This document shows positions 26,667 to 42,261 of a stretch of 54,464 nt of DNA, piece by piece. How positions within the stretch are numbered: the first letter of the stretch is position 1; each line of letters begins with the position of its first letter. The stretch spans positions 1 to 54,464 of the forward strand of contig LBYF01000003.1 in the NCBI GenBank assembly GCA_000996025.1, written 5' to 3'. Below the pieces are notes generated by a model. It was not told where the DNA came from and did not search any database. It saw nothing but the letters and a program-made list of their open reading frames with translations. A program made the position numbers and the translations under genes. This DNA is from Parcubacteria group bacterium GW2011_GWA2_40_14. Lineage in GTDB: Bacteria > Patescibacteriota > Minisyncoccia > Phycocordibacterales > DATDWN01.

Positions 26667-26688
26667 TTAAATTTCTTATATAAAATAT

Positions 26689-27350: not shown

Positions 27351-27695
27351 ATGGCACCAGTTTTAACACTTCCAGACATTTCGGAAGTCACACCACTTTC
27401 CGACAAAGACCAGCCGATGATCGACGAGATTATTGATGTGTTGCGAAGGCATGGCAACCTAAATCGGTTTGGTCTTGTGCTTCTCCATCAGCATTTTAAC
27501 CTTGCTGATGACGAGGTGTTAGTTGAATCGACCGACAAAGAAAATCGTACTCAAACGACTAAGCCGATAAAGAAAGACGATCTGTCACGGATGAATCATA
27601 CAGAAACGTCATGGCGTCTTGATACAGGAAAGCCGATGATGGCTTGCTCGTGTATTAAGTTCGGTGACGATCATCAGCACCTGAGCAGAGGCTGA
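27351..27695 (+). CDS. Hypothetical protein (114 aa)
   Basis: GGAG-rich SD before ATG 27351. Higher GC than surroundings. Own hairpin downstream. No motif recognised. Confidence 0.5.
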   Translation: MAPVLTLPDISEVTPLSDKDQPMIDEIIDVLRRHGNLNRFGLVLLHQHFNLADDEVLVESTDKENRTQTTKPIKKDDLSRMNHTETSWRLDTGKPMMACSCIKFGDDHQHLSRG

Positions 27696-27702
27696 CTCCA
27701 TA

Positions 27703-27731
27703 CCCCGCTACTTGTAAATAAGGTGGCGGGG
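27703..27731 (+). terminator. Hairpin terminator candidate
   Basis: CCCCGCTACTT / AGGTGGCGGGG stem with a weak T tract. Confidence 0.5.
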
Positions 27732-27758
27732 TAAACTATATTTTAGTATCATAGTTTT

Positions 27759-28448
27759 ATGATTTTTTGGAATCAAAAAGAAGTCCTGTTTAGTGGAATA
27801 TCTGAATACGTCAATAAATACGGGGTAAAATCTGTCCTTGATATAGGCGCGGGCGACGGAAATCTAGCGTTGAAAATATCAAACATTATAAATGACTACA
27901 CTGCCATAGAAAATGACAATAGAAAAATCGAGAATTTGAGAAAACTTAGATTGAAAGTAATAAAAGGAAATTTTCCAGCGGTAAAAATTGCAAAAAAATA
28001 CGATTTAGTTCTTTCTTCACATTCTGTACCTGAAAATATTGAGGAAATCGAACAATTTTTAAAAGAAGCTTGTAGGTTGGTAAAATCAGGAGGTTTATTG
28101 CTCATCATTACCTTTAAGGGCGGAAAAGGAGATGTTTTTAAATTAAAAGAAAAATTAAAAAGAACTGCCGAAATAGCAGACAAGGAGCACTTCGAAAAAA
28201 TAAGTAATACTTTAAGAAAACTGGGAAAGATTAAGATTAAAAAGAAAATAAGTACAATTAAATCGGATAAGTTAAGGGATATTATCAAAATCGTACGATT
28301 TTCTTTAGGAAATTCAAAAAATCAAGAACTTAAGAAAAAAATAATAAGTTTAATGAAAAAACACTTTAAAACAAATGGTAAATACCTTTTTAAATTTGAA
28401 CATCTTTTTCTGTCATTGAAGAAATATGGTCGACAACATGCAAAATGA
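27759..28448 (+). CDS. Class I SAM-dependent methyltransferase
   Basis: VLDIGAGDGNLALKI motif I and GGLLLIITF motif. Confidence 0.7.
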   Translation: MIFWNQKEVLFSGISEYVNKYGVKSVLDIGAGDGNLALKISNIINDYTAIENDNRKIENLRKLRLKVIKGNFPAVKIAKKYDLVLSSHSVPENIEEIEQFLKEACRLVKSGGLLLIITFKGGKGDVFKLKEKLKRTAEIADKEHFEKISNTLRKLGKIKIKKKISTIKSDKLRDIIKIVRFSLGNSKNQELKKKIISLMKKHFKTNGKYLFKFEHLFLSLKKYGRQHAK

Positions 28449-28453
28449 AAAGT

Positions 28454-28543
28454 TTAAAAAAGTATTCCTTTTTTAAAAGATTTTTTTGTAAAAATTCCCT
28501 TCCCGGATATTTTACTTTTTGCAACATATAAATCTTTTTTCAT
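28454..28543 (-). pseudogene. SET-domain gene 5' remnant (29 codons)
   Basis: MKKDLYVAKSKISGKGIFTKKSFKKGILF*. About 92% identical over ~75 nt to the remnant at 30920-30997. Confidence 0.75.
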
Positions 28544-28740
28544 ATATAATGGTATTCTATTTATTCTATCAGATTGATAAAAAATATAATACAATCAAAA
28601 TAATGAAAAACCAAAAAAATATATTTTATAAAAAATCTACCTTTTCACATAAGTCCAGTGTGGATAAAAAATGGTTAATTTGATGATTGACAAAATAGAT
28701 TTTAAGTTTACTATGTAGGGTAGAATTGGGAGGTATGGGT

Positions 28741-29850
28741 ATGAGTTCATTTCAAGTAAAAATAGTTGGGGATTTTTGCAATATACGTTGTACTTATTGC
28801 AGGAATCGTGATTTTGATCAAGATACAAATGTAGTGATGTCTATTGAGAAACTCGAGAAACTCTTTGTCTTTCTCAATTCATTACCACAAGCACAGATTC
28901 GTACGAATTGGCATGGGGGAGAGCCGCTACTTGCGGGCAAAAGATTCTTCAGTCATGTTTTGAGGCTGGAGAGTCAATATCAGCAAAAAATGTGGCGAAA
29001 TGTCGTTCAAACAAACGCCATGCTTGTTGATGATGAGTGGGCCAAATTTTTTCACGATAATAACTTCCTTATAGGAGTGAGTATTGATGGAAGCGAGAAA
29101 ACACACAACAGTGACAGAATTAATGTTGCGGGACGCGATACCTACAAAGAAGCAATGCGTGGTGTGGAAATCCTGCGACATCATGACATTTTTCCTGGTG
29201 TCATCTGCACCGTTACCAAAAAGACAGTGAGATATGCGGAAGAAATGCTTCTTGGTTTGGTGAACGCTGGATTCAAGGATATCGCTTTCAACGCTTTCTA
29301 TAACACAGCATCAGACTGTAATGGAGATACATACGGTCTGACAGATAAAGAGTGGCTGACGTTTCTTATAGAAATATTTGAAACTTGGCTTACTCTCAAC
29401 GACCCTACAGTTCATGTTCGTGAGTTAGATAGCATGCTCGCATGGACCAAGTCCAAGAGCGCTAACTCCTGTGTCTACAAAGGTACGTGCCACCAGTGGT
29501 TTGTCGTGGATTACACTGGGGACATCTATCCTTGTGAGAGGTTGGGTAGGACAACTCACTTCGGTAGTATTGATACCTTGAGAACTTTTCAAGACTTGAT
29601 GGATACTCCAGTCTTTCTCAACTGGAAAGAATCGATAGTTCAACTTCCAAAGAAATGTCAAGCTTGCAGTTTACAGTCATTGTGCCATAATGGCTGTGTG
29701 AGTCATAGAACTGCAGATGAAGAGGGGGTTCCCCTCTATACTTATTGCGAAAGCAGACTCGGTTTCTATGATTACATTATGAGAAGGCTTGGCGGAAAGG
29801 AGGTAAACAACCATGTCACTCAAAAACAGTTCTTTGTTGGAATCCCCTGA
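28741..29850 (+). CDS. Radical SAM enzyme with C-terminal SPASM domain (peptide-maturase/anSME-like)
   Basis: CNIRCTYC (CxxxCxxC), GGEPLL, and SPASM Cys clusters (CVYKGTCHQWFVVDYTGDIYPC, CQACSLQSLCHNGC). GGGAGG SD. ATG 28741 or 28735. Confidence 0.85.
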   Translation: MSSFQVKIVGDFCNIRCTYCRNRDFDQDTNVVMSIEKLEKLFVFLNSLPQAQIRTNWHGGEPLLAGKRFFSHVLRLESQYQQKMWRNVVQTNAMLVDDEWAKFFHDNNFLIGVSIDGSEKTHNSDRINVAGRDTYKEAMRGVEILRHHDIFPGVICTVTKKTVRYAEEMLLGLVNAGFKDIAFNAFYNTASDCNGDTYGLTDKEWLTFLIEIFETWLTLNDPTVHVRELDSMLAWTKSKSANSCVYKGTCHQWFVVDYTGDIYPCERLGRTTHFGSIDTLRTFQDLMDTPVFLNWKESIVQLPKKCQACSLQSLCHNGCVSHRTADEEGVPLYTYCESRLGFYDYIMRRLGGKEVNNHVTQKQFFVGIP

Positions 29851-30013
29851 AGAAGTTAAAAAGCTCCAATCTCAACTGTTAGAGAATCTGGCGCTTCAAG
29901 ACGCATTTGGTCGGATCGAGGATCCTAGTCGCTTTTCATCGGGAATACCAAAAATCACGAGCTATGATGATTTCCACTACGACGATTGTGGATACTCTGA
30001 TGCTCCGACGTAG
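29813..30013 (+). CDS. 66-aa candidate precursor peptide
   Basis: AAAGGAGG SD inside the 3' end of the rSAM gene, with a 38-nt overlap. MSLKNSSLLESPEEVKKLQSQLLENLALQDAFGRIEDPSRFSSGIPKITSYDDFHYDDCGYSDAPT has a single Cys in a C-x3-D context. A strong terminator follows. Confidence 0.55.
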   Translation: MSLKNSSLLESPEEVKKLQSQLLENLALQDAFGRIEDPSRFSSGIPKITSYDDFHYDDCGYSDAPT

Positions 30014-30071
30014 ACCATGATCAATGACAACAGCAAAAACCGACTCGGAGGAAATCACCAGTCAGTTAAAA

Positions 30072-30101
30072 AGCGGGTTCGCAAAAACCCGCTTTTCTTT
30101 T
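30072..30101 (+). terminator. Rho-independent terminator
   Basis: AGCGGGTT/AACCCGCT stem followed by TTTCTTTT. Confidence 0.8.
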
Positions 30102-30112
30102 AATATGAACGT

Positions 30113-30901
30113 ATGATTAATAAAAATATTTTAATGTCCTATGACGAGTATTCAAAAATTCAGCATGAGACTCCATATTTTTATATTTTTCGATCAGGAG
30201 GTCGGTTAACTTATTATTTCGGTTCTAATCATTCTCATGATCCAAATCACCCGCAATTCAATTTATTAAGGAAAAAATGGAACGAATTTACCAGTGAGAC
30301 TAGAGCTGTGAAAACGGTAGTTATTGTGGAAGCACATGAAATAGCTAAATTAGAAGCTACCATGGAGGAATCTATTATCAAGCATGGTGAGTCAGGCGCT
30401 GGGGCCTATTTGGCGTATGAATTTGAGTCATTGCTTATTTTTGGAGAACCTCATAATGATAAAATAATTGCCCATTTACTTAGAAATTTTTCTAAAGAAG
30501 AAATCCTCTTGTGGCATGTATGTCAGGCTATAAAATTTTGGCAACAGCACAAAATGGGTAGAAGCATACAAGAATTTCTGTCAAATCAAACGCAGAAATA
30601 TCGTAGATTACTAAATTGGCCGGACTTAGTTATATCTGTAGAGCTTATTAATACAATATATAAAAAGCTATTTAATCGAGAGCTAAATATTGATAATGAA
30701 AAAACACTCTCTGAAATCACCACTCCCGTAAGCATTCAATCGAGGATCAATGAACTATCTAGAAGTCAATCTATATATAGAAATGAATATGTATTGGGTC
30801 AGATAGAGAAATATTGGAGCGAAGGATACAACATCTTTGTAATTTACGGGGCTGGTCATGCAGTAATGCAAGAACCTGCTATCCGTAGTTTAGTAAGCTA
30901 G
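30113..30901 (+). CDS. Hypothetical protein, possibly TraB/PrgY/GumN/Tiki-superfamily
   Basis: YFGSNHSHD (GxxH), VVIVEAHE and the C-terminal VIYGAGHAVMQEP (GAxH) fit the superfamily pattern. Weak, by-eye call. Confidence 0.4.
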   Translation: MINKNILMSYDEYSKIQHETPYFYIFRSGGRLTYYFGSNHSHDPNHPQFNLLRKKWNEFTSETRAVKTVVIVEAHEIAKLEATMEESIIKHGESGAGAYLAYEFESLLIFGEPHNDKIIAHLLRNFSKEEILLWHVCQAIKFWQQHKMGRSIQEFLSNQTQKYRRLLNWPDLVISVELINTIYKKLFNRELNIDNEKTLSEITTPVSIQSRINELSRSQSIYRNEYVLGQIEKYWSEGYNIFVIYGAGHAVMQEPAIRSLVS

Positions 30902-30919
30902 TTTCTAAATATTTTAATC

Positions 30920-30997
30920 TCATATTTTAAAAGATTTTTTTGTAAAAATCCCCTTCCCGGATATTTGACTTTTTGCAACGTATAGATCTTTTTTCAT
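30920..30997 (-). pseudogene. SET-domain gene 5' remnant (25 codons)
   Basis: MKKDLYVAKSQISGKGIFTKKSFKI*. Confidence 0.75.
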
Positions 30998-31031
30998 ATT
31001 TTATACATTCAGTATATTATAAAAAGTAATT

Positions 31032-31463
31032 TTAATTATTTTCTATTTCATTAACAACTTCCAATAACTTTTTTCTATAGTTTCCTATAATTCTATGGTC
31101 AGCTTTTGGAATAACGATAACTTTCCATCCACATTTTAGAGTTTTTGCAACCCTTTGAATTTCTTTTAAACACCACTTTTCTTTCTCGCCAACAAGAAAG
31201 ATTATTTTTTTTACTTTAAGAGTTTTTAGACTTTCTGCTGGAGTTGGTGAACACATAATAAGTGTTTTTACTTTATTTTTTTCAGCATGTATATAGGCTA
31301 GAATACAACCAAGACTGAACCCTACTAATACATCCACCCTTCCTATTTTGGGAGTAATGGTACTTTTGTTCCAGTCAATTCTAGGAATATGAAAATACTT
31401 TGAAAGAGACTTGTACTCAGACAAATCGCCAAGACCATATAAAAATGTGATTGCCTTTTTCAT
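31032..31463 (-). CDS. Small serine-hydrolase-like protein (alpha/beta fold?)
   Basis: GFSLG nucleophile-elbow motif and a late ADH motif. Only 143 aa. Confidence 0.5.
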   Translation of the reverse strand: MKKAITFLYGLGDLSEYKSLSKYFHIPRIDWNKSTITPKIGRVDVLVGFSLGCILAYIHAEKNKVKTLIMCSPTPAESLKTLKVKKIIFLVGEKEKWCLKEIQRVAKTLKCGWKVIVIPKADHRIIGNYRKKLLEVVNEIENN

Positions 31464-31473
31464 AATAAATGAT

Positions 31474-31499
31474 GAAAGACAGACTGAAATCTGTCTTTC
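31474..31499 (-). terminator. Hairpin between the DUF397 gene and the hydrolase gene
   Basis: Perfect 10-bp stem GAAAGACAGA/TCTGTCTTTC. Confidence 0.5.
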
Positions 31500-31505
31500 T
31501 GCGAG

Positions 31506-31745
31506 TTAAATATCAAACTCGCCTTTCTTGGCGCCATCCAGAAACGCATTCCATTCTGAATGGGTGAAGAACAGAGTGCCGTTGGCACGGTTCTTGCTAT
31601 CGCGGACAGCAACACCTTCAGGTTTGATTGCCACTTCAACGCAAACATATAACTTGCATCGCAAAGTACTTGATGATGTTTTGAAGTCGCCTTCCATGAC
31701 CTTGAACGATTTGTCCTGGCCTTGTTGGGCCGGTCCTGCTTTCAC
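31506..31745 (-). CDS. DUF397-domain protein
   Basis: FKTSSSTLRCKLYVCVEVAIKPEGVAVRDSKNRANGTLFFTHSEWNAFLDGAKKGEFD matches the DUF397 pattern (KSS.S....CVEVA....V.VRDSK...G..L.F....W.AF...K.GEFD). GTG start with GGAGG SD. Confidence 0.7.
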   Translation of the reverse strand: MKAGPAQQGQDKSFKVMEGDFKTSSSTLRCKLYVCVEVAIKPEGVAVRDSKNRANGTLFFTHSEWNAFLDGAKKGEFDI

Positions 31746-31855
31746 TTTTTTCTCACCTCCAATCCGAAAGAGCTAAAGTAAGTCACAGTTTGCTACCGAT
31801 GACTCCTGATTATAATCATATAGCATTATAATTTGTTGTCAACTATATTTCAGTC

Positions 31856-32371
31856 TTAATTTTCACTAGCTGTTTTAATTTTTTCCACTATAGCTGACCA
31901 GCTTTCGACTTTTGTCACTTTTGACAAAAATTGTTTGAACTCGTCAATTTCTGCTTGGTCAGGCTGATATAAAAACAGATGAGGCACAGTATTAACCATG
32001 TGACTTAAAACCTCAAGACGATCATCGACAAAACATGAAACGTTATTATCGCTACAAATTTTATCTTTTTCATGCCTTTCTCTGCAAAAGAAAACATTTT
32101 CTGGTTTTACTCCAGTTTTTGTGTAAAAATTATTATCCTTCAGCCAAGCTAAAATTTTTTCTTGTGCCCACGGGGTACATTTTGATATCAAAAAAATGTT
32201 CCCTTGAAATTTATTATCATTTAATTTTTTAATAGCATCAAACATGCCCTCTGCGGCGGGAATGGTCGAATATCGTTCCTCATGCAAAGTCTTATCTTCT
32301 TTATCTGTAAGACGATGATTAATAATAACATTACCAATATCAATACCCAGAGATTCTTTTTTTATTGTCAT
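31856..32371 (-). CDS. Hypothetical protein, paralog 1 (HAD-like layout, degenerate motif I)
   Basis: LGIDIGNVII ... FVDDRLEVLSHMV. Paralogous to 32436..32930. Start MTIKKE at 32371. Confidence 0.55.
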   Translation of the reverse strand: MTIKKESLGIDIGNVIINHRLTDKEDKTLHEERYSTIPAAEGMFDAIKKLNDNKFQGNIFLISKCTPWAQEKILAWLKDNNFYTKTGVKPENVFFCRERHEKDKICSDNNVSCFVDDRLEVLSHMVNTVPHLFLYQPDQAEIDEFKQFLSKVTKVESWSAIVEKIKTASEN

Positions 32372-32406
32372 AATAAAAATAATTATACACAAAAGTTAAC
32401 AAAATA

Positions 32407-32432
32407 CAGCCCCTCGACGGTTCGAGAGGCTG
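32407..32432 (-). terminator. Hairpin terminator between the two paralogs
   Basis: CAGCCCCTCGA/TCGAGAGGCTG stem. On the minus strand TATTTTGTT follows. Confidence 0.6.
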
Positions 32433-32435
32433 TTG

Positions 32436-32930
32436 CTAAACAAGCAGTGTTCGGACAATTTCATCCCACGATGTGACCAATTGAACATGAGGTAGAAAGT
32501 CTTGATACTGCTTGACTTCTTTTTGTTGTGGTTTAAGTAGGTACAGATTTTTCACCTTGTCAACAAGATAACTAAGTACTTCAAGACGATCATCAACGAA
32601 GTGAGTTGCTTGATACAAATCACATATCGAAGACTTGTCACGTCCATTTTTAGTCCTCATCACTTGTGCTGGATAAATACCAGTCCTACTGAAGAAGTCA
32701 TGCGACTTCAACCAAGACAAGATTTTTTGATCGGCAACATCCGAAGCGTTATAAACTACGAATATGTTGCCTGCAAATCTTTCCTGATTAAGCTGCCACA
32801 AAGCCTCGATGACTCCTGGCATCTGTGGAATCACATTATAATCTCCAGATTGAACAAACTCTGGAGTTGTCCCGAATCCTACGTGATCAATGATCACGTT
32901 TCCCAAATCAACACCAAAACTTTCTCTCAT
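32436..32930 (-). CDS. Hypothetical protein, paralog 2
   Basis: FGVDLGNVIIDH ... FVDDRLEVLSYLV. Same block order as 31856..32371 (GNIF, ILxWLK, F(Y/F)xxTG). Confidence 0.55.
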   Translation of the reverse strand: MRESFGVDLGNVIIDHVGFGTTPEFVQSGDYNVIPQMPGVIEALWQLNQERFAGNIFVVYNASDVADQKILSWLKSHDFFSRTGIYPAQVMRTKNGRDKSSICDLYQATHFVDDRLEVLSYLVDKVKNLYLLKPQQKEVKQYQDFLPHVQLVTSWDEIVRTLLV

Positions 32931-33033
32931 TACTCACCCACTTTCTAGATCTAATCTATTATCTACTATACATAACTTTATTTTTGTTGTCAAATCAAAT
33001 TTCAAAACATAATTTTTATAAATTCTCTCAACT

Positions 33034-33150
33034 TCATCCAGATTTTATTCCAGACAGAAGACATTTTGTATTCAACAAATTTTTAATATTCTCCCCGGCA
33101 AAAAGACCGATTTCATCTATTTTACTTACACTATGATAAATATGTTTCAT
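33034..33150 (-). pseudogene. SET-domain gene 5' remnant (38 codons)
   Basis: MKHIYHSVSKIDEIGLFAGENIKN, then unrelated sequence. About 90% nt identity to the first ~70 nt of the intact gene at 27108-27177. Confidence 0.8.
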
Positions 33151-33236
33151 ATTTTTTATAGTATATCATATAAAATTCTGTTTCTTCAATATCACTATTT
33201 TAATAGCTTGAAATTATACAATAAAGCCAAATTTTA

Positions 33237-33245
33237 TGGTATAAT
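33237..33245 (+). promoter_or_regulatory. Extended -10 promoter candidate (TGgTATAAT)
   Basis: TGGTATAAT, 17 nt before ATG 33263. Implies a very short leader. Confidence 0.4.
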
Positions 33246-33262
33246 AGCCAAACTCACAAACT

Positions 33263-33934
33263 ATGCAAAATATTTTTGAAAACAAATCAAAAGATGTCCT
33301 TGTTTTGTTTTCTGGTGGCAGAGATTCTTCTTCTGTCGCGGCTCTATTAGCTTTGGCTGGATATAAGATAAAACTATATACCTACCAAGCCGGTCTGCCG
33401 GAACTGACCGGACCACGAGGAGATTCCGCGCCAGATATTAGACATAAAGAACTTACACAAGCTTTTCCTGAAGATATTGACAGAGAAAGAATTATTGAGG
33501 GCAGTACATATTTGATTAGAAAACTAGCCATAGAAAAAACAAATATTGAACATGTTATCTACCCTATCGCCTTGGCGCTTGCGGTACACGCTAATGCCGT
33601 TTGCTATTGCTTAAAAAACAACATAAACACGATAGCTTCCGGATATTCCGGTTATCAAGCAAAAGAAGACAGGTATATTGAACAGAGCGGTGATTTTGTT
33701 TCACTGACTAAAGAATTTTTAGAGGAATATGATATCTCATATCTTACGCCAGTTATAGAAAAGTCTAAACTTGAAGTAATGGATATTTTGGAACGGCACA
33801 ATATCAGTTCCAATTCTCTTGAAAATAAATCTGTTTTTGGAGGAATTTCTTTTGATAAAGAAAAAGCCAAAGCTTTCTGGAAATCTTCTATTTCTTTATG
33901 TAGGGAATTTATAAAAAATATGCAAACCAGTTAA
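33263..33934 (+). CDS. PP-loop ATP pyrophosphatase (adenine nucleotide alpha-hydrolase, QueC/ExsB-like size)
   Basis: VLVLFSGGRDSS (SGGxDS PP-loop), 223 aa. Confidence 0.7.
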   Translation: MQNIFENKSKDVLVLFSGGRDSSSVAALLALAGYKIKLYTYQAGLPELTGPRGDSAPDIRHKELTQAFPEDIDRERIIEGSTYLIRKLAIEKTNIEHVIYPIALALAVHANAVCYCLKNNINTIASGYSGYQAKEDRYIEQSGDFVSLTKEFLEEYDISYLTPVIEKSKLEVMDILERHNISSNSLENKSVFGGISFDKEKAKAFWKSSISLCREFIKNMQTS

Positions 33935-33938
33935 AAGT

Positions 33939-34538
33939 ATGATAAAAAAAGATGCAACGTTATTGGTGACTTCTTCCTTATTAAAGAAAGCTGTGTATTT
34001 TGCGGCCAAAAAACATGACGGGCAATATCGCAAAGGAACAGATGTGCCATATTTTGCTCATCCAGTCTTGGTGGCATTAGGCGTTTTTAAATATTCACAG
34101 GATGAAAACGTGCTGGCAGTGGCAATTTTACACGATGTGATGGAAGATTGCGACGTTACATATACGGAACTGAAAGAGCTATTCGGCAGTAAGGTGGCCA
34201 ATATTGTCAAGGAAGTGAGTTCTCCGACAAATATACCGGTAAAAAACAGAAGCTGGAAAGATAGAAAGGTGTCGTATATGCGGCAAATTAAAAATATTTC
34301 AAAAGAAGCTTGCATTATCGTGGCGGTTGATAAAATGACCAATATGCAAGCGTATTTCGGAGCTACTGAAGCCAACAACAAAAAAAGTCTGGGTAAGTTC
34401 GGAGGTACATTAACGGATTATTTTTGGTATTATGGAGAAATATATAATATACTAAAATCAAATCTTGGAAATCATCCTGTTATAAAAGAATACGAAAAGC
34501 TTTTAAAAAATCATGAGAAAAACTTGCAAAAAGACTAG
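33939..34538 (+). CDS. HD-domain (p)ppGpp hydrolase-like protein (small alarmone hydrolase)
   Basis: AAKKHDGQYRKGTDVPYFAHPVLVA and AILHDVMEDCDVTYTELKELFGSKVANIVKEVS match the RelA/SpoT hydrolase (HD_4) blocks. Confidence 0.8.
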   Translation: MIKKDATLLVTSSLLKKAVYFAAKKHDGQYRKGTDVPYFAHPVLVALGVFKYSQDENVLAVAILHDVMEDCDVTYTELKELFGSKVANIVKEVSSPTNIPVKNRSWKDRKVSYMRQIKNISKEACIIVAVDKMTNMQAYFGATEANNKKSLGKFGGTLTDYFWYYGEIYNILKSNLGNHPVIKEYEKLLKNHEKNLQKD

Positions 34539-34578
34539 TATTCCACTAAGCTACTGTTAGAAAGGATGGTAAAAAAAG

Positions 34579-35067
34579 ATGGGTCAAGAGTTGATTCTCT
34601 TGTATCGAAAACTAATCGGTTGTTCCATTGAGTTTATTGCGGACGAGATTGCCACGACAGTTAAGCCGGTACTTTCGCAAAGTCCGACTATCAGCTACCG
34701 AATCAAAAGTCAAGACACACTGGCAAAAAAGATGATTCTGGTGAAGACAGAATCAATTATTGATATTGACGATGTGTATGCTTTCCGGATTCTCGTTTCC
34801 TCAGCGAACGAAGCATACTTGGTTCTTAAGGCGCTGACGAAGTCTTTCCGAGGTTTTTTAGACCATGACTATATTGCCAATCCAAAGACCCGTCCTGACA
34901 AACCTCATCTAGATGGAAAAAGTCTTAAGTTGCTTCAGTTCATCGCTTACAAAAACAACGTTCCATTTGAAATACAAATCACGACTTTTGAATGGAACGA
35001 GAGCAATGAATTGCTTCACGACGAATACCACCGAGAAAAATATCCAATTATAGACCATTCAGATTGA
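34579..35067 (+). CDS. RelA/SpoT-type nucleotidyltransferase (small alarmone synthetase; toxSAS candidate)
   Basis: YRIKSQDTLAKKM, DVYAFRILV and FEIQITTFEWNESNELLHDEYHREKY match the synthetase-domain blocks. Only 162 aa. Confidence 0.7.
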   Translation: MGQELILLYRKLIGCSIEFIADEIATTVKPVLSQSPTISYRIKSQDTLAKKMILVKTESIIDIDDVYAFRILVSSANEAYLVLKALTKSFRGFLDHDYIANPKTRPDKPHLDGKSLKLLQFIAYKNNVPFEIQITTFEWNESNELLHDEYHREKYPIIDHSD

Positions 35068-35073
35068 TAAGAA

Positions 35074-35187
35074 CTAATCTGAAGGGTCTTTTTTGTCTGC
35101 AACCAGTTTTTTTAATGTTAATATATCTTCTCCGACAAAGACGCCCATTCCATCTATTTTACTTTGAGCATGATATATTTGTTTCAT
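35074..35187 (-). pseudogene. SET-domain gene 5' remnant (37 codons)
   Basis: MKQIYHAQSKIDGMGVFVGEDILTLKK... Its upstream ATTTTATATAGTATATCAT is shared with the remnant at 33150. Confidence 0.75.
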
Positions 35188-35276
35188 ATTTTATATAGTA
35201 TATCATCCGTTTCATTGACAATAAAAGTGATTTGTGTAAAATAACATACAGATTTATGAAGAAAGGAGGTGAAAAT

Positions 35277-35348
35277 ATGGGATACCTGTATGCTGACAAG
35301 CCGGGTGTGGATAAACCACCACATCTTCCCAGACCGCGTCCAAGGTGA
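35277..35348 (+). CDS. 23-aa proline/arginine-rich peptide (oncocin-like core) or leader peptide
   Basis: AAAGGAGGTGAAAAT-ATG (ideal SD and spacing). MGYLYADKPGVDKPPHLPRPRPR*. Not in the track (short, and masked by the artificial 5' extension of the peptidase ORF). Confidence 0.5.
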   Translation: MGYLYADKPGVDKPPHLPRPRPR

Positions 35349-35355
35349 CAAAACA

Positions 35356-35385
35356 AAACGGGAGGATAGAGATATCTTCCCGTTT
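35356..35385 (+). terminator. 13-bp hairpin 8 nt after the peptide stop (terminator/attenuator candidate)
   Basis: AAACGGGAGGATA-GAGA-TATCTTCCCGTTT, followed by CAAATTTATTT (interrupted T tract). Confidence 0.55.
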
Positions 35386-35406
35386 CAAATTTATTTAAAA
35401 TTTTAT

Positions 35407-37401
35407 ATGGAAAAACTTAAAAAAGACAAGTATGCTTTTTTTGAAAAAAATACGGAGAGAACCGAAAAATGGATACTGTCAGAACAGTCCAAAACAACGG
35501 ATTATTTCAAAAATAACTCATATAAGAAAAGACTTTTCAAGCGGTTGGAAAAGATAAAAGACATTGATGAAAAGTTTCTCCCAGTCATACGAGGAGAAAT
35601 GTATTTTTTCCGTTGGAGAAAAAAGGGTGAACAGGTCTCTTCTTTGTATATGCAGAAAAATGCCAAATCAAAACAGGAAAAAATACTGGATTGTAACGCT
35701 ATGTTTAAAAAACACGGTTTGGTCGTAACTGACTGGACTGTTTCTAAAACGGGTAAGCTTCTTTCATATTCTGTTTCTAAATCAGGAAATGACAAATCAT
35801 CAATCCATGTCATAGATATTCAAAAAAGAAAAAATTTAACTGACTTTATTCCGGAAGAGATATATCCTGAATTCGAATGTTGGATGCCGGATGAGAGCGG
35901 TTTTTATTATAGCAGAAATAATCCCGGTACATCAAAAGAAGATGTAAAAATGCAAAATAAAATCTATTTTCACAGGATTGGCCACGGTTTTGCAAACGAC
36001 AGATACTTCTTCGGTAGAGACCTGAGCAAAACAGACAGAGTGCAAATGAAAATATCGGATGATGGGAATTATTTTCTTGTTACCGTTTTTGATTTTGCAC
36101 ATGAAAAAGAAAATGCAGAGATATACTTGGGAATTAGCTCCAACAAAAAGATAATCAGAATTCTCGGTAAAGAAAATTGCTTGCGATACCCGGTCTTGCA
36201 TAGAAACTGCGTCTATATCTTAAGTAATAAAGACACTCCTCACTGGAAAATTGAAAAGGCTTCCGTAAAAAATTTATTGGAAGGAAAGAAGAATTGGCGG
36301 GTTATAATCAAAGAAAATAAAAACCGAGTGATAGAATCTTTCAGTTTTATACAAGATAAAATGTTTTTAATCACACTGGAAAATGTTTCCTCTCATATCG
36401 GCGAATACACTCTATCTGGAAAATATAAGAGAAATATCAAACTGCCAGCTATAGGCACAGTATCCAAAATATATTGCCAAAAAGAAGGCAATGAGTTATT
36501 TTTCGCTTTTTCCTCTTTTGTTTTTCCAAAAGTCATATACAATCTTTCATTAAAAAATGATAAATTATCCGTTTTCTTTCAAAGAAAAATTTCAAATTCT
36601 TTAGAAAATACGACGGTAAGACAACATTTCTTCAAATCAAAAGACGGGGTTAAAGTTCCTATGTTTTTAATTCATAAAAAAACAATAAAAAAAGACGGCA
36701 ACAATCCCCTGCTTTGCTACGGCTATGGCGGTTTTGGTACGTCGTTAACGCCGTCTTTTGACCCGGGTATTATTCCTTTTCTGGAGGATGGCGGGATATA
36801 CGCGGAGATAAACATTCGAGGAGGAGGCGAATTCGGCGAAAAGTGGCACGAAGCCGGAAAATTATTCAATAAACAAAATTCTTTTGATGATTTTATATCC
36901 GGAATTAAATATCTTTACAAAAATAAATACAGTCGGCCTGAAAAAACCGCCATATTCGGTTGGAGCAACGGAGGACTGCTGGTTGGAGCAGTCGTAACTC
37001 AAGAGCCGGAAATATGCAAAGTGGCTGTTATCGGCGCTCCAGTTTTAGATATGGAAAAGTATTACTTATTTGACGGCGGCCGGTATTGGATACACGAATA
37101 CGGAAACCCTAAAAATAAAAGATATTTGGAAAATCTCCTTTCATATAGTCCGTATCACAATATACAAAAAGAAACAAGCTATCCTTCAATGCTTATCTTG
37201 AGCGCCAGAGAAGATGACAGGGTTCATCCAATGCATGCGTATAAATTTGTGGCTAAAATGAGAGATATTGCAAGACTGAAAAATCCTCTGCTGTTGCGAT
37301 TGGAAGAAAAAGCCGGTCATAGCGGAGCAAACGGCATGAATAAATCAAATGAACAACAAGCGGACATATTGTCTTTTATATACAAAGAATTGAGAACTTA
37401 A
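35407..37401 (+). CDS. Prolyl oligopeptidase (S9A family)
   Basis: N-terminal KYAFFEKNTERTEKWILSEQSKTTDYF (PYRWLED-type region), beta-propeller, catalytic GWSNGG, D and H (AGHSG). Start MEKLKKD at 35407 rather than 35269. Confidence 0.9.
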   Translation: MEKLKKDKYAFFEKNTERTEKWILSEQSKTTDYFKNNSYKKRLFKRLEKIKDIDEKFLPVIRGEMYFFRWRKKGEQVSSLYMQKNAKSKQEKILDCNAMFKKHGLVVTDWTVSKTGKLLSYSVSKSGNDKSSIHVIDIQKRKNLTDFIPEEIYPEFECWMPDESGFYYSRNNPGTSKEDVKMQNKIYFHRIGHGFANDRYFFGRDLSKTDRVQMKISDDGNYFLVTVFDFAHEKENAEIYLGISSNKKIIRILGKENCLRYPVLHRNCVYILSNKDTPHWKIEKASVKNLLEGKKNWRVIIKENKNRVIESFSFIQDKMFLITLENVSSHIGEYTLSGKYKRNIKLPAIGTVSKIYCQKEGNELFFAFSSFVFPKVIYNLSLKNDKLSVFFQRKISNSLENTTVRQHFFKSKDGVKVPMFLIHKKTIKKDGNNPLLCYGYGGFGTSLTPSFDPGIIPFLEDGGIYAEINIRGGGEFGEKWHEAGKLFNKQNSFDDFISGIKYLYKNKYSRPEKTAIFGWSNGGLLVGAVVTQEPEICKVAVIGAPVLDMEKYYLFDGGRYWIHEYGNPKNKRYLENLLSYSPYHNIQKETSYPSMLILSAREDDRVHPMHAYKFVAKMRDIARLKNPLLLRLEEKAGHSGANGMNKSNEQQADILSFIYKELRT

Positions 37402-37414
37402 CATTATCAGAAAT

Positions 37415-37445
37415 CCCTCACCAGTCTTTGTAAAACTGGTGAGGG
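37415..37445. terminator. Bidirectional terminator
   Basis: Perfect 11-bp stem CCCTCACCAGT/ACTGGTGAGGG between convergent genes. Confidence 0.8.
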
Positions 37446-37446
37446 G

Positions 37447-38022
37447 TTATATTTTCCTCTCCTTTCTTTTTGGAAAAAACAGAAACCAGAGAAGAACTCC
37501 GTCTAAGACAAAGAGCCAGACCGGATATACAATTTCACCAAATGTCATTTGCCGGATAGCAAAGAGATTGATGAAATTTCCGGTTTGAGTCAGCGTCCAG
37601 GCGAATTTGTCTTCTTCCTTTGGATGTTTTCTGGTTTTTTGGATCGTTGGCCACAGAGCAAAGGTGTCAGTGGTCAACGCGGCAATAAGCGCCACATCTG
37701 GCCGTTTGAAAACCCAGAGAACAATCAAACTGACAACAGAACCCAAGATACAGAAATTTTCACCAACTTCTTTTTGCTTTTTTCCATATCTTATTGAAAG
37801 CAAAGCGATGGTAATGATACCAATCACTTCGCTTCTGGCAACCCACAAGGTTTCCTTGGCTCCAGCGGCCTCTGCGCTAAAGTAGAGCGTTACTGCCAGC
37901 GGAGACCAAATCCACCATGTGGTCCGACTTGGTTTGGTTTCTCCCCTAAATATGGATAGGATGTAAAATCCATATCCAAGAAGAGAAAATATACCGGCAA
38001 CTTTCCCAAAAATTTCTTGCAA
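37447..38022 (-). CDS. Integral membrane protein, unknown function
   Basis: About 6 hydrophobic segments. TTG start preceded by AAGGAGG. Confidence 0.6.
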   Translation of the reverse strand: MQEIFGKVAGIFSLLGYGFYILSIFRGETKPSRTTWWIWSPLAVTLYFSAEAAGAKETLWVARSEVIGIITIALLSIRYGKKQKEVGENFCILGSVVSLIVLWVFKRPDVALIAALTTDTFALWPTIQKTRKHPKEEDKFAWTLTQTGNFINLFAIRQMTFGEIVYPVWLFVLDGVLLWFLFFPKRKERKI

Positions 38023-38098
38023 AAAGCACCTCCTTTTCTAGTTTCAATTATAGCATATTTAATAGTGATTTGTCAAATATACGTAAGGTAGTATCTTT

Positions 38099-39283
38099 TT
38101 AAAAATACTTTTTGAGGAAACTCTTGACCTCTTCAAGTTTCATGGAATCAGCATATTCGCTTGGAAATATATCTAAATTATCTTCTTGGCGAAGTTCAGA
38201 CCATTGATTACTGAATATTTTCTCTATCCCTTTCATTAAGGAGAGTCCTAGATTTGGATATATATCTTCTATACTATGTGCTAAATAGTAAATGATATTA
38301 CGTTGATAAGTGCTCTGATCCTCCTTGCGTTCTTGATAATTTGAAAAACTATATTTTGGATAACAAGCGTCCAGAATAACTTTTGAGATATCCCATAAAG
38401 GCATCAATAGCTTTATAGAACCAAATTTACGCACAGGGAATGCAAGAGGTTTTTGTCCATTCATTAATGAAAATAGCAGGTCTGACAATAGGTCCTCACG
38501 ATTAAAACCAAGTATATATTCGTTTGTGTGATATTCTTGGCAAAGTTTTCGTGCAACAATGGAAATGAGATAGGTACCAAAGAAATGGCTCGTGTTATTA
38601 CCGAACTTCTCAGAGTATTCCTTATAAAAGTTACTGAGAGACTCCTTCATTTCTAATAGTTTTTCAATTTCCTCATTTCTATAAACATGATGAGTAAGAC
38701 CATGAGTAAGACAGAGTTCAGAAGCTCTATCTGCTGCAAATGTAGGCCAGATTGGTTCAAAAATAATGGTAAAGAAAATAAAGCGTTTGTTGGAATTCTC
38801 TAAGGTTAGCGCTTTAAGTCCTTGCGCAAGGGTATTACTGTCTCCACCGCCAGAAATTCCTACGATTACAGTATTAAAGGAACTATTTTTCTTAACAAAG
38901 TCAACAACTTTTCCCTTCACCAATTCTTTTGCAGAATCTGGATTTAATTCATGAATAGTTTGACTACAACCATCATCTCCAAAGTTAAATTCTGGAATGG
39001 TGATTACAGGATTTTCGACTTTATTATAGAATGTTTTCTGTGGTAGTACATCCTTTAAATCTATATTCCTAATACAATGAAGCATTATCTTTTCTTCAAA
39101 AGGAATAACAAAAATCAGTGTGTTGAGTGGAATTGGGCGTACTTCTTCTCCCATTTTTGCGTATCCTTGGAAAAGATTTGATGGAATACGTTTCGTTCGC
39201 AAGACTTCTTCTAAAGTAAGGGAATCATCTGTCTTTACCGCAATCTCTTCAGAAGCAGTTTTGATAGTGATGTCTCTTAACAT
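38099..39283 (-). CDS. TilS/TtcA-like PP-loop ATPase with a ~130-aa N-terminal extension
   Basis: VIVGISGGGDSNTLAQGL (PP-loop) and LGFNREDLLSDLLFSLMNG (TilS-like block). The N-terminal domain is unassigned. Confidence 0.65.
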   Translation of the reverse strand: MLRDITIKTASEEIAVKTDDSLTLEEVLRTKRIPSNLFQGYAKMGEEVRPIPLNTLIFVIPFEEKIMLHCIRNIDLKDVLPQKTFYNKVENPVITIPEFNFGDDGCSQTIHELNPDSAKELVKGKVVDFVKKNSSFNTVIVGISGGGDSNTLAQGLKALTLENSNKRFIFFTIIFEPIWPTFAADRASELCLTHGLTHHVYRNEEIEKLLEMKESLSNFYKEYSEKFGNNTSHFFGTYLISIVARKLCQEYHTNEYILGFNREDLLSDLLFSLMNGQKPLAFPVRKFGSIKLLMPLWDISKVILDACYPKYSFSNYQERKEDQSTYQRNIIYYLAHSIEDIYPNLGLSLMKGIEKIFSNQWSELRQEDNLDIFPSEYADSMKLEEVKSFLKKYF

Positions 39284-39289
39284 AAATAA

Positions 39290-39457
39290 TTAGTTGAATG
39301 CTGCGAGAGAAGACGTACACAAAATGTGTTCTATTTTCGCATTAGTGAGTCGGTCTAATCCTTTATCAATGAGAGATGCGAAAAGACCAGATTTAGAGAT
39401 AGTTAAAACTTTAGACTTTTCTATATTTATAATAGGTAATGTTGTAATATTTTGCAT
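39290..39457 (-). CDS. Small ORF (55 aa; the ORF is open to 39553)
   Basis: MQNITTLPIINIEKSKVLTISKSGLFASLIDKGLDRLTNAKIEHILCTSSLAAFN. Stops 6 nt before the PP-loop gene ATG. No clear SD. Confidence 0.35.
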   Translation of the reverse strand: MQNITTLPIINIEKSKVLTISKSGLFASLIDKGLDRLTNAKIEHILCTSSLAAFN

Positions 39458-39633
39458 GTTATATGTTCTTGCCCAGTTTTTATTAATAATTCTCCACAAA
39501 CGGATGTAGTGCGAGAATGAGCTTATCATGGCAAATATAAATATCTTTGTCAAATCTTTTTATATATAAAAAATGGGGCTATGGACACTGCCCACGACCC
39601 CATTCAAGTATTTGTCACCAAAGATTAGATGAC

Positions 39634-40749
39634 TTACATGTATCCTCGCTCTCCCTTGTTCAGTTTTGGATAGAGGCGTTGCATCCATTCATTGACCATT
39701 GGACGCTGAAGCGATCCTTCCGGCGAACGAAAGACTAGTGTCGCTACAACGTTTTTTTGGTCAGGACGAATACCAAGATTCTCTCTTGCCTTAATCGGTA
39801 ACTGCTCGTAAGAAATCTCGGAGTATTGAATCTCCTCAATGTAGACGGCTTCTAATCCAAGCTCATCACGTATCTCCTCACAGACATCCTCTTCAGTTTT
39901 GTCCATAGAGGTAGAGTACGAGAGTACCCTCTTTGTAGCAGGCTGGTCAGATACCTTCATGAACTTATCAAGATTTGTCATCTGACGTTTTATTCGTGGG
40001 TCACTTGACCTCAAAATACGAATATCGTCAATTTCTTTAGTGATCATGACGAGCCGATCAAGTCCCATTCCCAGAGCAAGTCCGGAGTATTCTTGCGGGT
40101 CAAGACCGGCATTCTTGAGAACTGTCGGGTTAGCCTCTCCACATTCAAGAACTTCAAGCCACTTTCCATTCACTAGAACCTCAACCTCAAGACCATTAAT
40201 CGTGTACGGATGCTTCATCTCATTGGCTCGATACTTGTATCCGGGAATGACACTGTTCAATATCGTTTCAATTAGATGAATGAGGTCTAGGCGACCAAAA
40301 TGAGGATTTCCATGTTTGATTCGCCAGACGTCCATCTGATTTGGTTCACCACAGTGAATTTTGTCAACAACATCACGACGGTAACACATACCCGGCAAAA
40401 CAACGATTGTATCGTTGACACCGTCACGAGATGCTTTCCTAAGCCAGTTTGGGATGGCTGCTGAAGTATGGGTTCGTAAAATGATGTCCTCTGTGACATA
40501 CCTTGTATAGCGAGACGACCGCCCAGCATTGTCCACCGGGAAAAGAAGGTCATCGAAGTTTTCTTTCACAGACACTTCCGGATTTGAGCGAACTTCTTCA
40601 ATAATCGTCTCAGCATAGGATGTTTCCATAGCCTGCTTTATATTAGAGACGACAATATTGACGGCGTGAATTCCATTCTTCGGATCGGTTAAGTCTGGAA
40701 TGACTAACGAAGCTTCCAAACGTTCTGGTGACATGATTTCTTTTTTCAT
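39634..40749 (-). CDS. Stand-alone PheRS-alpha-like class II ligase with a C-terminal ferredoxin-fold (FDX-ACB-like) domain
   Basis: ILRTHTSAAIPNWL, VLPGMCYRRDVVDKIH and GLALGMGLDRLVMI match class IIc motifs 1-3 of PheS. No PheS N-terminal coiled coil. The C-terminal ~95 aa resemble the B3/4-B8-type anticodon-binding fold. GGAG SD. Confidence 0.7.
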   Translation of the reverse strand: MKKEIMSPERLEASLVIPDLTDPKNGIHAVNIVVSNIKQAMETSYAETIIEEVRSNPEVSVKENFDDLLFPVDNAGRSSRYTRYVTEDIILRTHTSAAIPNWLRKASRDGVNDTIVVLPGMCYRRDVVDKIHCGEPNQMDVWRIKHGNPHFGRLDLIHLIETILNSVIPGYKYRANEMKHPYTINGLEVEVLVNGKWLEVLECGEANPTVLKNAGLDPQEYSGLALGMGLDRLVMITKEIDDIRILRSSDPRIKRQMTNLDKFMKVSDQPATKRVLSYSTSMDKTEEDVCEEIRDELGLEAVYIEEIQYSEISYEQLPIKARENLGIRPDQKNVVATLVFRSPEGSLQRPMVNEWMQRLYPKLNKGERGYM

Positions 40750-40923
40750 GAGTGTATCTCCTTTCTATATCTTTGTCATGTAATTAATAACACGACTTAG
40801 TTTGGTTAGAACTAATCTGTCATTTATAATATAGAGATGACTTTTATTGTCAATGATTCTATAGGTTTGTAATATGGGGAAAAGATTATATTTTATGAAT
40901 GCTTTGTGAGTTATAATTGTTTT

Positions 40924-42261
40924 ATGTTTAGGAATACTGAAAGAGGTTATATCGGGTTTGTCATACTAGCCATAGTAGCAGTAGCTCTCGGAGCAGTTTC
41001 GCTCTTTTTTTATGAACAGAAAAAACCAACTCCGTCGCCGACAGAACAGTTAGAAAAAATTGTTATGGAAGATGCCAGAGCAAATCAGCTGGCTAATGTT
41101 GTAGAAGCCACCACAACCATAGTAATAGCCACAACAACTGAAATAAAAACCGAGCAACTTGTTCCAGTTCCTGTTTCAAAGAAAATTGTATCTTACGCAG
41201 ATACTCCTCCTAAACCGACTGCAAAACCGACCATTCAAGCGGAACCGTCAGTAGTCATTCCTCCATCTCCACCGAAAGAGCCGACACTTATAGTGGAAAC
41301 TGGAGAACAGCCGAAACAAACTTTGCTTATCGGCTCTGCCCGTCTTGTGCCATTTACTGTTGTTAATCTGACGGCAAAAGAGACGGATATTGAAATTGAA
41401 AGTCTGGAGGTGGAAAGAAAAGGAATGGGCTCTGACCGCATTTTTGTGGAGGTTGGGGTTATAGACCATGGCTTGGAGAAAAAACTAAACGCAAACCATC
41501 AATACGTTATGAGAAAACCGTTCACCATTAAAGCCGGCGAGACGGAGGAAATAACTTTGTACGGCAATATAACAGACAAAAGCACTCTTGCCACATACGA
41601 AGGACAAAGCCCTTCTCTGGCTTTAATTAAAATAAATATAAACGCCAAAACACCGGCAAAAATCTCCGGAGTCCTTCCTATAGTCGGCACGGCTCATATC
41701 GTGAACTCATCTTTAACCATTGGCTCTATGACATTGTCCAGTAGCGGTTTTGACCCCGGCATAAATAAAAACATTTACATCAACGACACCGGCATCATAT
41801 TTTCGGCGGTCAGAGGTCTTGTCGGCGGGTCGGAAGTGATTAACCTCCAATTTTTCGGCTGGACTCAAAATGGTTCGGCTTCTTACCTCAACATCTCAAA
41901 TGTTCAAATATGTGTTTTTTATAAAGCTGATACAAAATGTTTTCCAGCCGATGTGGATTCTGTCGGAAAATATTATTCGGCGGAATTTGGCGATATGAAA
42001 ATCGGCAAGGGCGAGTCTTTTGACCTCTACATCAAAGGCGATGTTCTGCCAAGCGGAGTAAATAGGACTGTCAATTTTGATATAACCACTTCTTATGACG
42101 TTTTGGGTCTTGGGCAAAGTTACAATAACTTTATATACAGCCAAGGGGGAGAGTTGGACGGCGCCCAGCCGGAGGGTTCTTTCTCCATCACGGAATACCC
42201 GTTTTATAACGGCTACGCTCACAGCATAGTCAGCGGTTCATTCAATAACATCGGAAGATAA
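40924..42261 (+). CDS. N-terminally anchored extracytoplasmic protein, unknown function
   Basis: TM helix (GFVILAIVAVALGAVSLFF), a Pro/Thr-rich linker, then a beta-rich domain. Confidence 0.6.
   Translation: MFRNTERGYIGFVILAIVAVALGAVSLFFYEQKKPTPSPTEQLEKIVMEDARANQLANVVEATTTIVIATTTEIKTEQLVPVPVSKKIVSYADTPPKPTAKPTIQAEPSVVIPPSPPKEPTLIVETGEQPKQTLLIGSARLVPFTVVNLTAKETDIEIESLEVERKGMGSDRIFVEVGVIDHGLEKKLNANHQYVMRKPFTIKAGETEEITLYGNITDKSTLATYEGQSPSLALIKININAKTPAKISGVLPIVGTAHIVNSSLTIGSMTLSSSGFDPGINKNIYINDTGIIFSAVRGLVGGSEVINLQFFGWTQNGSASYLNISNVQICVFYKADTKCFPADVDSVGKYYSAEFGDMKIGKGESFDLYIKGDVLPSGVNRTVNFDITTSYDVLGLGQSYNNFIYSQGGELDGAQPEGSFSITEYPFYNGYAHSIVSGSFNNIGR

Follow-up and report, generated by a model that had tools for sequence, protein, structure and literature searches.

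The 637-kb genome of Parcubacteria group bacterium GW2011_GWA2_40_14, which is 97.8% complete, carries on contig C3 a cassette of three genes that encode a relative of phenylalanyl-tRNA synthetase (PheRS), a small peptide and a PP-loop adenosine triphosphatase. The contig (LBYF01000003.1; 54,464 nucleotides) is the whole stretch of DNA that we analysed, and we refer to it as the window. An earlier reading of the locus from its letters alone (hereafter the sequence-only reading) had recognized the three genes. It overlooked, however, that the penultimate residue of the peptide co-varies across phyla with the type of aminoacyl-tRNA synthetase (aaRS) encoded beside it.

A small peptide and its PP-loop enzyme

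All three open reading frames (ORFs) lie on the minus strand where the sequence-only reading had placed them, and every motif that it quoted is present (LRTHTS, CYRRD..D..H, GLALGMGLDRL, ISGGGDSN and NREDLLSDLLFSLMNG). The synthetase-like gene (39634-40749), called from its ORF and from its match to NCBIfam family NF051887, encodes the 371-residue protein SrmL. The peptide gene (39290-39457) encodes 55 residues from an ATG at 39457, and its frame stays open upstream as far as a TTG at 39553, which would give 87 residues. The third gene (38099-39283) encodes a 394-residue ubiquitin-like/PP-loop protein, a predicted peptide-modifying (adenylating) enzyme; its ATG follows the stop codon of the small ORF after 6 nucleotides, as had been noted. 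Promoter-like sites lie on the same strand 5′ of the SrmL gene (40826-40853; TTGACA-16-TATTAT, 11 of 12 positions) and between the SrmL and peptide genes (39525-39553; TTGACA-17-CATGAT with TG, 10 of 12), both being consensus matches only. The intervening site suggests that the peptide and enzyme genes form a transcription unit of their own.

The small ORF is a real and conserved gene. With a profile built from its C-terminal 40 residues, counterparts turn up directly upstream of the PP-loop gene in both Patescibacteria and Actinobacteria, at about 70 loci altogether, with E values from 1e-5 to 1e-23. The peptides of these cassettes are 55–80 residues long; their N-terminal half is variable and conservation is concentrated in about 30 residues of the C-terminal half, with the consensus G-L-D-R-L/M-T ... 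I/V-E-x-V/I-L-C/A-x-S/x-A-L-x-A-X-Z. The last residue varies (N, F, I, L, E, G, M, V, K or Q). The peptide of the window ends Ala-Ala-Phe-Asn, so that its penultimate residue is Phe.

Relatives of the enzyme number about 110 in a 90%-identity collection; a search of 1.84 billion representatives clustered at 50% identity yields only 237 clusters with E ≤ 0.001. They occur in Patescibacteria and, at 33–37% identity over the full length, in Actinobacteria. Invariant in the family are SGGGDS (in 17 diverse members), NRED, LDAC(Y/H)P, NY..R and several residues of the N-terminal domain. The sequence-only reading had described a TilS-type PP-loop core. The SGGGDS motif and the PP-loop fold are indeed there, but the protein falls below the cut-offs both for TilS (TilS_N, TIGR02432; 26.1 bits versus 93.6) and for the Pfam PP-loop family (PF01171; 25.7 versus 27). 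An AlphaFold2 model (pLDDT 91) matches TtuA, NcsA, TilS and NadE at probability 1.00; Foldseek ranks TtuA and NcsA first (E 4e-11), followed by TilS and NadE, the NH3-dependent NAD synthetase; the E values for the thiolases and TilS range from 4e-11 to 6e-8. The predicted architecture is a ubiquitin-like domain (residues 1–73), a beta-rich linker and a TtuA/TilS-like PP-loop ATPase. Within the N-terminal 130 residues that had been left unassigned, residues 1–73, folded alone, can now be assigned to the beta-grasp or ubiquitin-like fold; VIA matches this domain best to the RAF Ras-binding domain (Z 8.7) and to the sulfur carrier TtuB (Z 7.7), the latter with an rmsd of 2.1 over 62 residues.

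A wider superfamily at 27–31% identity extends to Proteobacteria, Bacteroidota, Myxococcota and Streptomyces (L079:7601-9095, L083, L086, L093, L094:7749-9167, L103, L108 and L113). Here the upstream small ORF has a related tail, ..E-x-I-C-G-A-S plus 6 residues, and the genes nearby encode MFS exporters or an ATP-grasp ligase, not synthetases. We found no relative of the enzyme on viral contigs, which leaves a phage origin of the cassette unsupported.

A model of the enzyme with the peptide and adenosine triphosphate (ATP) reached an ipSAE of 0.87, against 0.00 for the best control; that mark is attained by 58 of 80 solved complexes and by 2 of 110 mismatched pairs. The runs had at least 93% of contacts in common, and the pLDDT of the partner was at least 69. 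In this high-scoring predicted interface the peptide contributes residues 28–30 and 33–55, which is the conserved half through to the last residue. The enzyme contributes Ser144 of the SGGGDS loop, the NRED helix, R285, Q327/R328 and the C-terminal helix; its ubiquitin-like domain lies outside. The model supports binding of the peptide tail at the PP-loop. PP-loop enzymes (TilS, TtuA, NadE and the Asn-synthetase-like enzymes) adenylate a carbonyl or carboxylate oxygen, and the simplest inference is that this enzyme would adenylate the peptide at or next to its C-terminus. The sequence-only reading had offered aminoacylation or adenylation of the small protein as one option. Adenylation gains from the placement of the tail at Ser144 in the model, whereas nothing points to SrmL aminoacylating the peptide.

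The same structural neighbours bring in a different explanation, in which the small protein would be a TtuB-like carrier whose tail delivers a group, for example sulfur, to a TtuA-like enzyme that adenylates another substrate. TtuA and NcsA are the best structural matches, TtuA has been solved with the C-terminus of TtuB in its active site (5gha), and the N-terminal domain of our enzyme is TtuB-like. In common with TtuA–TtuB, Ncs6–Urm1 and TilS, the cassette enzyme has a PP-loop fold and, in the model, the tail of a small partner in its active site. However, the peptide lacks both a beta-grasp fold and a Gly-Gly tail; the enzyme has none of the C-terminal tRNA-binding domains of TilS; its gene is accessory rather than universal; and the cassette has no E1-like activating enzyme. 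The beta-grasp domain is fused to the N-terminus of the enzyme and therefore cannot serve as a carrier. The tRNA thiolases TtuA and Ncs6 have zinc fingers and three Cys ligands for a [4Fe-4S] cluster; C191 and C307 are the only invariant cysteines in the family alignment, which may speak against a cluster of this type. A carrier would, moreover, leave the match between encoded residue and synthetase unexplained, and we consider it quite improbable.

SrmL and the presumed housekeeping synthetase

The synthetase-like protein belongs to a family that is catalogued as the ‘PheS-related mystery ligase SrmL’ (NF051887; 396.3 bits over a cut-off of 300, model positions 2–349 of 349). The statement in the sequence-only reading that orphan PheS-like ligases exist was therefore sound. 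In its own genome the window gene alone passes this cut-off (a paralogue on contig C4 scores 214 bits), and the synthetases of three other cassettes are also members (371–394 bits). The family had no function attached to it; the pairing with a Phe-type peptide and a PP-loop enzyme, or with immunity-type genes (see below), gives it a context.

SrmL has the architecture of a single-chain PheRS, with a class II core followed by an FDX-ACB-like anticodon-binding domain. Pfam recognizes the class II core only (tRNA-synt_2d, 125 bits, residues 34–257). The N-terminal domain of PheS is missing, as had been reported, since Phe_tRNA-synt_N is not matched. The protein stays below the cut-offs for canonical pheS (TIGR00468; 109 bits versus 237.45) and for mitochondrial-type PheRS (TIGR00469; 130.4 bits in two stretches versus 258.35). 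The resemblance of its C-terminal region to an anticodon-binding domain was seen correctly, for the FDX-ACB domain of single-chain PheRS can be aligned with the whole of the last ~100 residues. Indeed, an alignment with the single-chain enzymes of its own genome and of relatives covers SrmL from end to end, with one insertion of ~10 residues in the anticodon-binding domain. More distant members of the SrmL family have Pfam FDX-ACB (PF03147) on record, and the homologue at locus L040 scores 30.9 bits against a gathering threshold (GA) of 31.1.

Catalytic motifs 1–3 are retained in SrmL. The phenylalanine pocket differs. In E. coli PheS, A294 is the specificity-determining alanine and is flanked by two aromatic residues; this F293-A294-F295 segment, which binds the Phe ring, is L-A-L in SrmL, so that the aromatic pair is not kept. 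The SrmL proteins of other cassettes have L-A-L or L-A-S, and the housekeeping copies W-A-F.

The synthetase gene appears to have been exchanged between cassettes. PP-loop enzymes that are 81–83% identical to that of the window have, as partners, SrmL subtypes whose identity to the window SrmL is 79% in some cases and as low as 41% in others. Two loci (L128, 1612-4139; L129, 3722-6138) carry both subtypes, one co-directional right after the enzyme gene and the other convergent, and across the cassette loci the order and strand of the synthetase gene differ. The cassette synthetases also keep their anticodon-binding domains. Judged by these comparisons the synthetase looks like a separate, exchangeable unit, as expected of an immunity module.

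Most SrmL genes of the window type are not beside a PP-loop cassette. We inspected four of these in other Patescibacteria (L120:5001-11116, L121:5001-11116, L122:3682-10995 and L123:3422-10991), three of them 70–81% identical to the window gene and the L123 copy 56%. At the level of Pfam matches they adjoin an S66 (MccF-like) peptidase, or an S51 peptidase and a GNAT fragment. Around them are also a methyltransferase and an Orn/Arg-type decarboxylase (compare MccD and MccE1), a class IIb synthetase, radical S-adenosylmethionine (SAM)/PqqD genes and dCTP-deaminase-like genes; at L123 a canonical pheS lies next to the SrmL gene. Enzymes of the S66, S51 and GNAT families are known to confer immunity to aminoacyl-nucleotides of the microcin C type (PMC8323819). 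We treat these neighbours as leads, short of proof.

SrmL is not the only PheRS-like protein of its genome. A second PheS-like gene lies on contig C4 (22823-23923; L007:1471-2790, minus strand) and encodes a single-chain enzyme in which a PheS core is fused to a PheT-type C-terminal FDX-ACB domain. By inspection it is near rpsB- and tsf-like genes, and it is presumably the housekeeping copy. A pheT gene, which had been reported as not adjacent to the SrmL gene, is found nowhere in the genome; the only PheT-like piece is the domain fused on contig C4. Among 61 relatives from one order some have a single-chain PheRS and others the ordinary two-gene form, and our literature search found no paper on single-chain PheRS in bacteria.

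Of these 61 genomes only its own contains an SrmL that passes the cut-off, and only its own contains the PP-loop protein. The sequence-only reading had reasoned that a housekeeping role would show itself in a sole PheRS and a sole TilS, syntenic orthologues in all relatives and an unconserved small ORF, and none of this is what we see. The second PheRS, the distribution among the relatives and the conservation of the small ORF together make the cassette a sporadic accessory module. The three-gene module is rare and horizontally spread.

These distributions bear on the proposal that the locus encodes an unusual PheRS with a lysidine- or 2-thio-type modifier, such that the PP-loop enzyme would modify tRNA-Phe and SrmL would charge the modified tRNA. 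The nearest folds, TilS and TtuA, and the anticodon-binding domain kept in SrmL speak for it. However, TilS over cut-off is absent from this genome and from 40 relatives (41 genomes of the order, in which the weak matches are MnmA-like only). An absence that is order-wide is a trait of the lineage, and it is not compensated by a PP-loop gene as rare as this one. An Rfam scan of positions 37000-41500 returned no T-box and no other RNA family, and there is no tRNA gene near the cassette, the sole tRNA gene of the window being a tRNA-Trp gene elsewhere. The enzyme misses the TilS and Pfam PP-loop cut-offs; the occupant of its active site in the complex model is the peptide tail; and the cassettes with a Gln-type peptide, described below, carry oxygenases and carbamoyltransferases typical of natural-product tailoring. 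The proposal also fails to explain why the encoded residue matches the synthetase. We find it unsupported and put it marginally below the carrier explanation in probability.

The penultimate residue and the neighbouring synthetase

We fetched 80 genome and 80 metagenome loci and judged the matching rule across the about 70 peptide loci. Peptides with the tails AFN or AFF are accompanied by SrmL or another PheS-like gene at 11 of 11 loci, the window included. Tails of the form AH(I/L) go with a histidyl-tRNA synthetase (HisRS) at 26 of 28 loci, and the two remaining contigs end within a few hundred bases; the HisRS of one locus (L037) exceeds the hisS equivalog cut-off (342 bits versus 287), and the His-type loci include Saccharibacteria. 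The tails CASE, IGSQ and ICSG are found beside a seryl-tRNA synthetase (SerRS; 473 bits for serS) at five loci. In a more distant clade of the enzyme, two loci with the tail NGWG have a tryptophanyl-tRNA synthetase (TrpRS; 315 bits) and a B12 radical SAM enzyme. Twenty actinobacterial loci with AQ(M/V) tails have no synthetase, and carry a TauD-like oxygenase, a P450 and often a carbamoyltransferase. Not one locus pairs a residue with a synthetase of another type.

Two sets of loci stand apart from this count. At L052 a HisRS-like gene is present and the profile scan did not find a peptide. In a distant subfamily (L080:7393-7866, L163:124-318 and L172:3081-3800) a protein of 160–240 residues ending KPCK-x-x-S-x takes the place of the small peptide, and at L172 a HisRS-like gene is nearby; this subfamily was left out of the count, neither for nor against.

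The matches are not the legacy of one ancestral cassette. A quick tree of the enzyme, with the mis-framed rows L069 and L084 disregarded, has one Patescibacteria clade with Phe, Ser, Thr and His types, and the His type arises again in Actinobacteria. Because the types are mixed within a clade and the His type appears twice, the matches represent several independent events rather than one inherited arrangement.

The matched synthetases that we checked are all second genomic copies, even in genomes of 0.6–1 Mb. There are two PheRS-like proteins in the genome of the window, two SerRS in two genomes of 0.6–0.8 Mb, two TrpRS, and two HisRS in five of five actinobacterial genomes. Conversely, GlnRS is absent from all five Gln-type host genomes checked, and such hosts would need no immunity copy.

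A spare synthetase could instead be a supplier, making the aminoacyl-tRNA or aminoacyl-AMP that the PP-loop enzyme would build onto a peptide scaffold, as with PEARL enzymes or valanimycin VlmL. Paralogues of aaRSs in gene clusters are known to supply aminoacyl-tRNA for biosynthesis, the cassette synthetases keep their anticodon-binding domains and with them the means to bind tRNA, and the extra N-terminal domain of the enzyme is unused in the predicted interface with the peptide. Yet nothing in such a scheme requires the penultimate residue encoded in the peptide to equal the supplied amino acid. Duplicating a synthetase for supply alone would be costly in a 0.6-Mb genome; the Gln, TASV and CATK types do without a dedicated synthetase; and relatives of SrmL adjoin immunity-type genes. 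We judge supply to be unlikely, though the least so of the alternatives.

The match itself would come naturally to a regulatory leader peptide, in which ribosomes stalling at the penultimate Phe, His, Ser or Trp codon would gauge the level of charged tRNA and so regulate the gene downstream. The position of the ORF, 6 nucleotides upstream of the next gene, would suit this too. But about 30 residues are conserved as protein across phyla and there is a single codon rather than a run; the synthetase is often on the opposite strand or upstream; and the peptide is predicted with high confidence to bind the enzyme. We give a leader peptide hardly any credence.

A candidate inhibitor pathway and its meaning

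The matching rule has a parallel. Tiarins are trifolitoxin-like RiPPs (peptides that are made on the ribosome and then modified post-translationally) that inhibit aaRSs, and the aaRS in the cluster matches the residue before a modified Gln; trifolitoxin, with Arg before the modified Gln, inhibits ArgRS, and the cluster aaRSs are read as resistant immunity copies (bioRxiv 10.64898/2025.12.02.691738). This concept of a RiPP with a matched aaRS dates from December 2025; neither PheRS and HisRS nor PP-loop enzymes nor Patescibacteria are mentioned in that work (bioRxiv 10.64898/2025.12.02.691738). As in the tiarins, one residue of the cassette precursor equals the specificity of a second-copy aaRS, and many aaRS types (here Phe, His, Ser and Trp, each matched and duplicated) are served on one scaffold. 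The equality of residue and synthetase, the second copy, and the lack of a synthetase where the host lacks the target make up the same pattern as in the tiarin proposal. Unlike the tiarins, which have a conserved Gln, the cassette has its specificity residue at the penultimate position of the extreme C-terminus. Its sole conserved enzyme is the ubiquitin-like/PP-loop ATPase, with no TfxB/TfxC pair of flavin mononucleotide (FMN)-dependent dehydrogenases with RiPP recognition element (RRE) domains in the cassette or among conserved neighbours, and its hosts include Patescibacteria. From this analogy we lean towards an enzymatically unrelated family with tiarin-like logic, whose Phe-type version would make a PheRS-directed product and in which SrmL would be the protective PheRS.

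Microcin C offers a second comparison. There too a short ribosomal peptide is activated with ATP at its C-terminus to give an aaRS inhibitor; the peptide of the window also ends in Asn, and SrmL relatives adjoin MccF-, MccE- and MccD-like genes. However, microcin C depends on a ThiF/E1-like MccB and an invariant C-terminal Asn. The cassette has no ThiF-like gene, and the variable last residue of its peptides means that succinimide chemistry cannot be general. The target of microcin C is fixed as AspRS, whereas in the cassette it would be set by the penultimate residue, with a resistant copy of the target as immunity. Resistant second-copy aaRSs are known for albomycin (SerRS), indolmycin (TrpRS) and agrocin 84 (LeuRS) (PMC8323819 and established knowledge). 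Like the cassette, those clusters have a complete second aaRS of the same specificity beside the biosynthetic genes. Their products are non-ribosomal or nucleoside compounds of fixed specificity, but the specificity of the cassette is apparently programmable by one codon of the peptide.

On balance, then, we regard the cassette as probably a RiPP-like pathway to an aaRS inhibitor, accompanied, for immunity, by a second copy of the target that would resist it. The ubiquitin-like/PP-loop enzyme would hold the ~55-residue peptide by its conserved C-terminal half. The last residues would enter the ATP site, where the enzyme would adenylate the C-terminal carboxylate or a neighbouring carbonyl, and this would install a C-terminal modification, with amidation, cyclization onto the preceding amide or transfer as options. 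The penultimate residue, Phe in the window, would aim the product at its cognate synthetase, here PheRS. The producer would keep its tRNA-Phe charged by means of SrmL, which is a complete single-chain PheRS whose Phe pocket has been remodelled.

Several observations weigh against this pathway. Peptides of 55–80 residues exceed known Trojan-horse precursors in length, and the minimal cassette has no conserved gene for an exporter, a leader peptidase or a further immunity function. Three tails have no synthetase in the available flank: TASV (L147/L148), CATK (L043) and TANV, the last on a short contig. At the Thr-type locus L043 the flank has no ThrRS, and the genome has one ThrRS only over cut-off. 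The Ser-type cassette copy outscores the other genomic copy against serS, which blurs which of the two is the housekeeping enzyme. The Phe-to-Leu changes in the SrmL pocket could mean a different substrate instead of resistance. The chemistry is predicted, and the score of the complex is model confidence only; since a PP-loop enzyme with the tail of a small protein in its site (TtuA–TtuB) has already been solved, some of the likeness in the complex model may have been learnt from that structure.

The cassette lies inside a stretch of the window, at about 26000-40000, with a GC content of 33–36% against 39–47% in the flanks; this stretch may be a horizontally acquired island. It also encodes a SET-domain protein, a methyltransferase, a radical SAM/SPASM enzyme (28726-29850) and an S9 peptidase. 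Downstream of the enzyme gene, on the minus strand, is a gene for a multi-pass membrane protein of 191 residues (37447-38022), a candidate exporter or immunity protein, although it is doubtful whether it belongs to the module. The gene comes with a perfect promoter-like site of its own (38047-38076) and with a terminator-like hairpin (37415-37445), Pfam and NCBIfam scans gave no match, and a homologue occurs in one other cassette locus only (L042, 23% identity). The S9 peptidase, a 451-residue secreted protein and a prephenate dehydratase were considered as module members and set aside, being absent from the other cassette loci. The same holds for a trio at 33263-35067 on the plus strand (a QueC-like PP-loop protein of 223 residues, an HD-domain hydrolase of 199 and a small RelA/SpoT-type alarmone synthetase of 162). 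Elsewhere in the window are two TrpRS-like genes 4 kb apart on the minus strand (3938-4807 and 8751-9746), a further synthetase duplication in this 637-kb genome. One product has 331 residues; the other, with 289, lacks some 30 residues at the N-terminal end of the Pfam domain. Between the two genes, at 7434-7505 and 5732-7345 on the plus strand, lie the tRNA-Trp gene, an amidoligase-like gene and an AstE/AspA-like gene.

We found no description of a cassette of peptide, ubiquitin-like/PP-loop enzyme and synthetase in the searchable literature. A broader proposal, which we make tentatively and at a little under an even chance, is that the cassettes define a new RiPP class in which a ubiquitin-like/PP-loop ATPase, by adenylating a ribosomal peptide at its C-terminus, makes a ‘programmable’ warhead. 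A single codon would direct it at PheRS, HisRS, SerRS or TrpRS, probably at GlnRS and possibly at ThrRS and AsnRS, with a resistant spare synthetase for each and SrmL as the inhibitor-resistant PheRS. Ultra-small Patescibacteria would use such compounds against hosts or competitors, or would use addiction-like modules of this kind against them.

If this is true, SrmL, a curated family named for its mystery, would gain a function, and there would be a second, enzymatically unrelated family of ribosomal peptides that hit tRNA synthetases by a simple sequence rule. The tiarin concept would extend to further class II enzymes (PheRS, HisRS and SerRS) and to TrpRS. Such enzymes are of interest as drug targets, and mechanistic studies would have resistant variants available from the outset. 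A PP-loop enzyme acting on the C-terminus of a peptide would be new chemistry for the TtuA/TilS-like branch. Finally, Patescibacteria with genomes of 0.6 Mb would be devoting genome space to chemistry of this kind, which matters for the way in which these epibionts deal with hosts and competitors.

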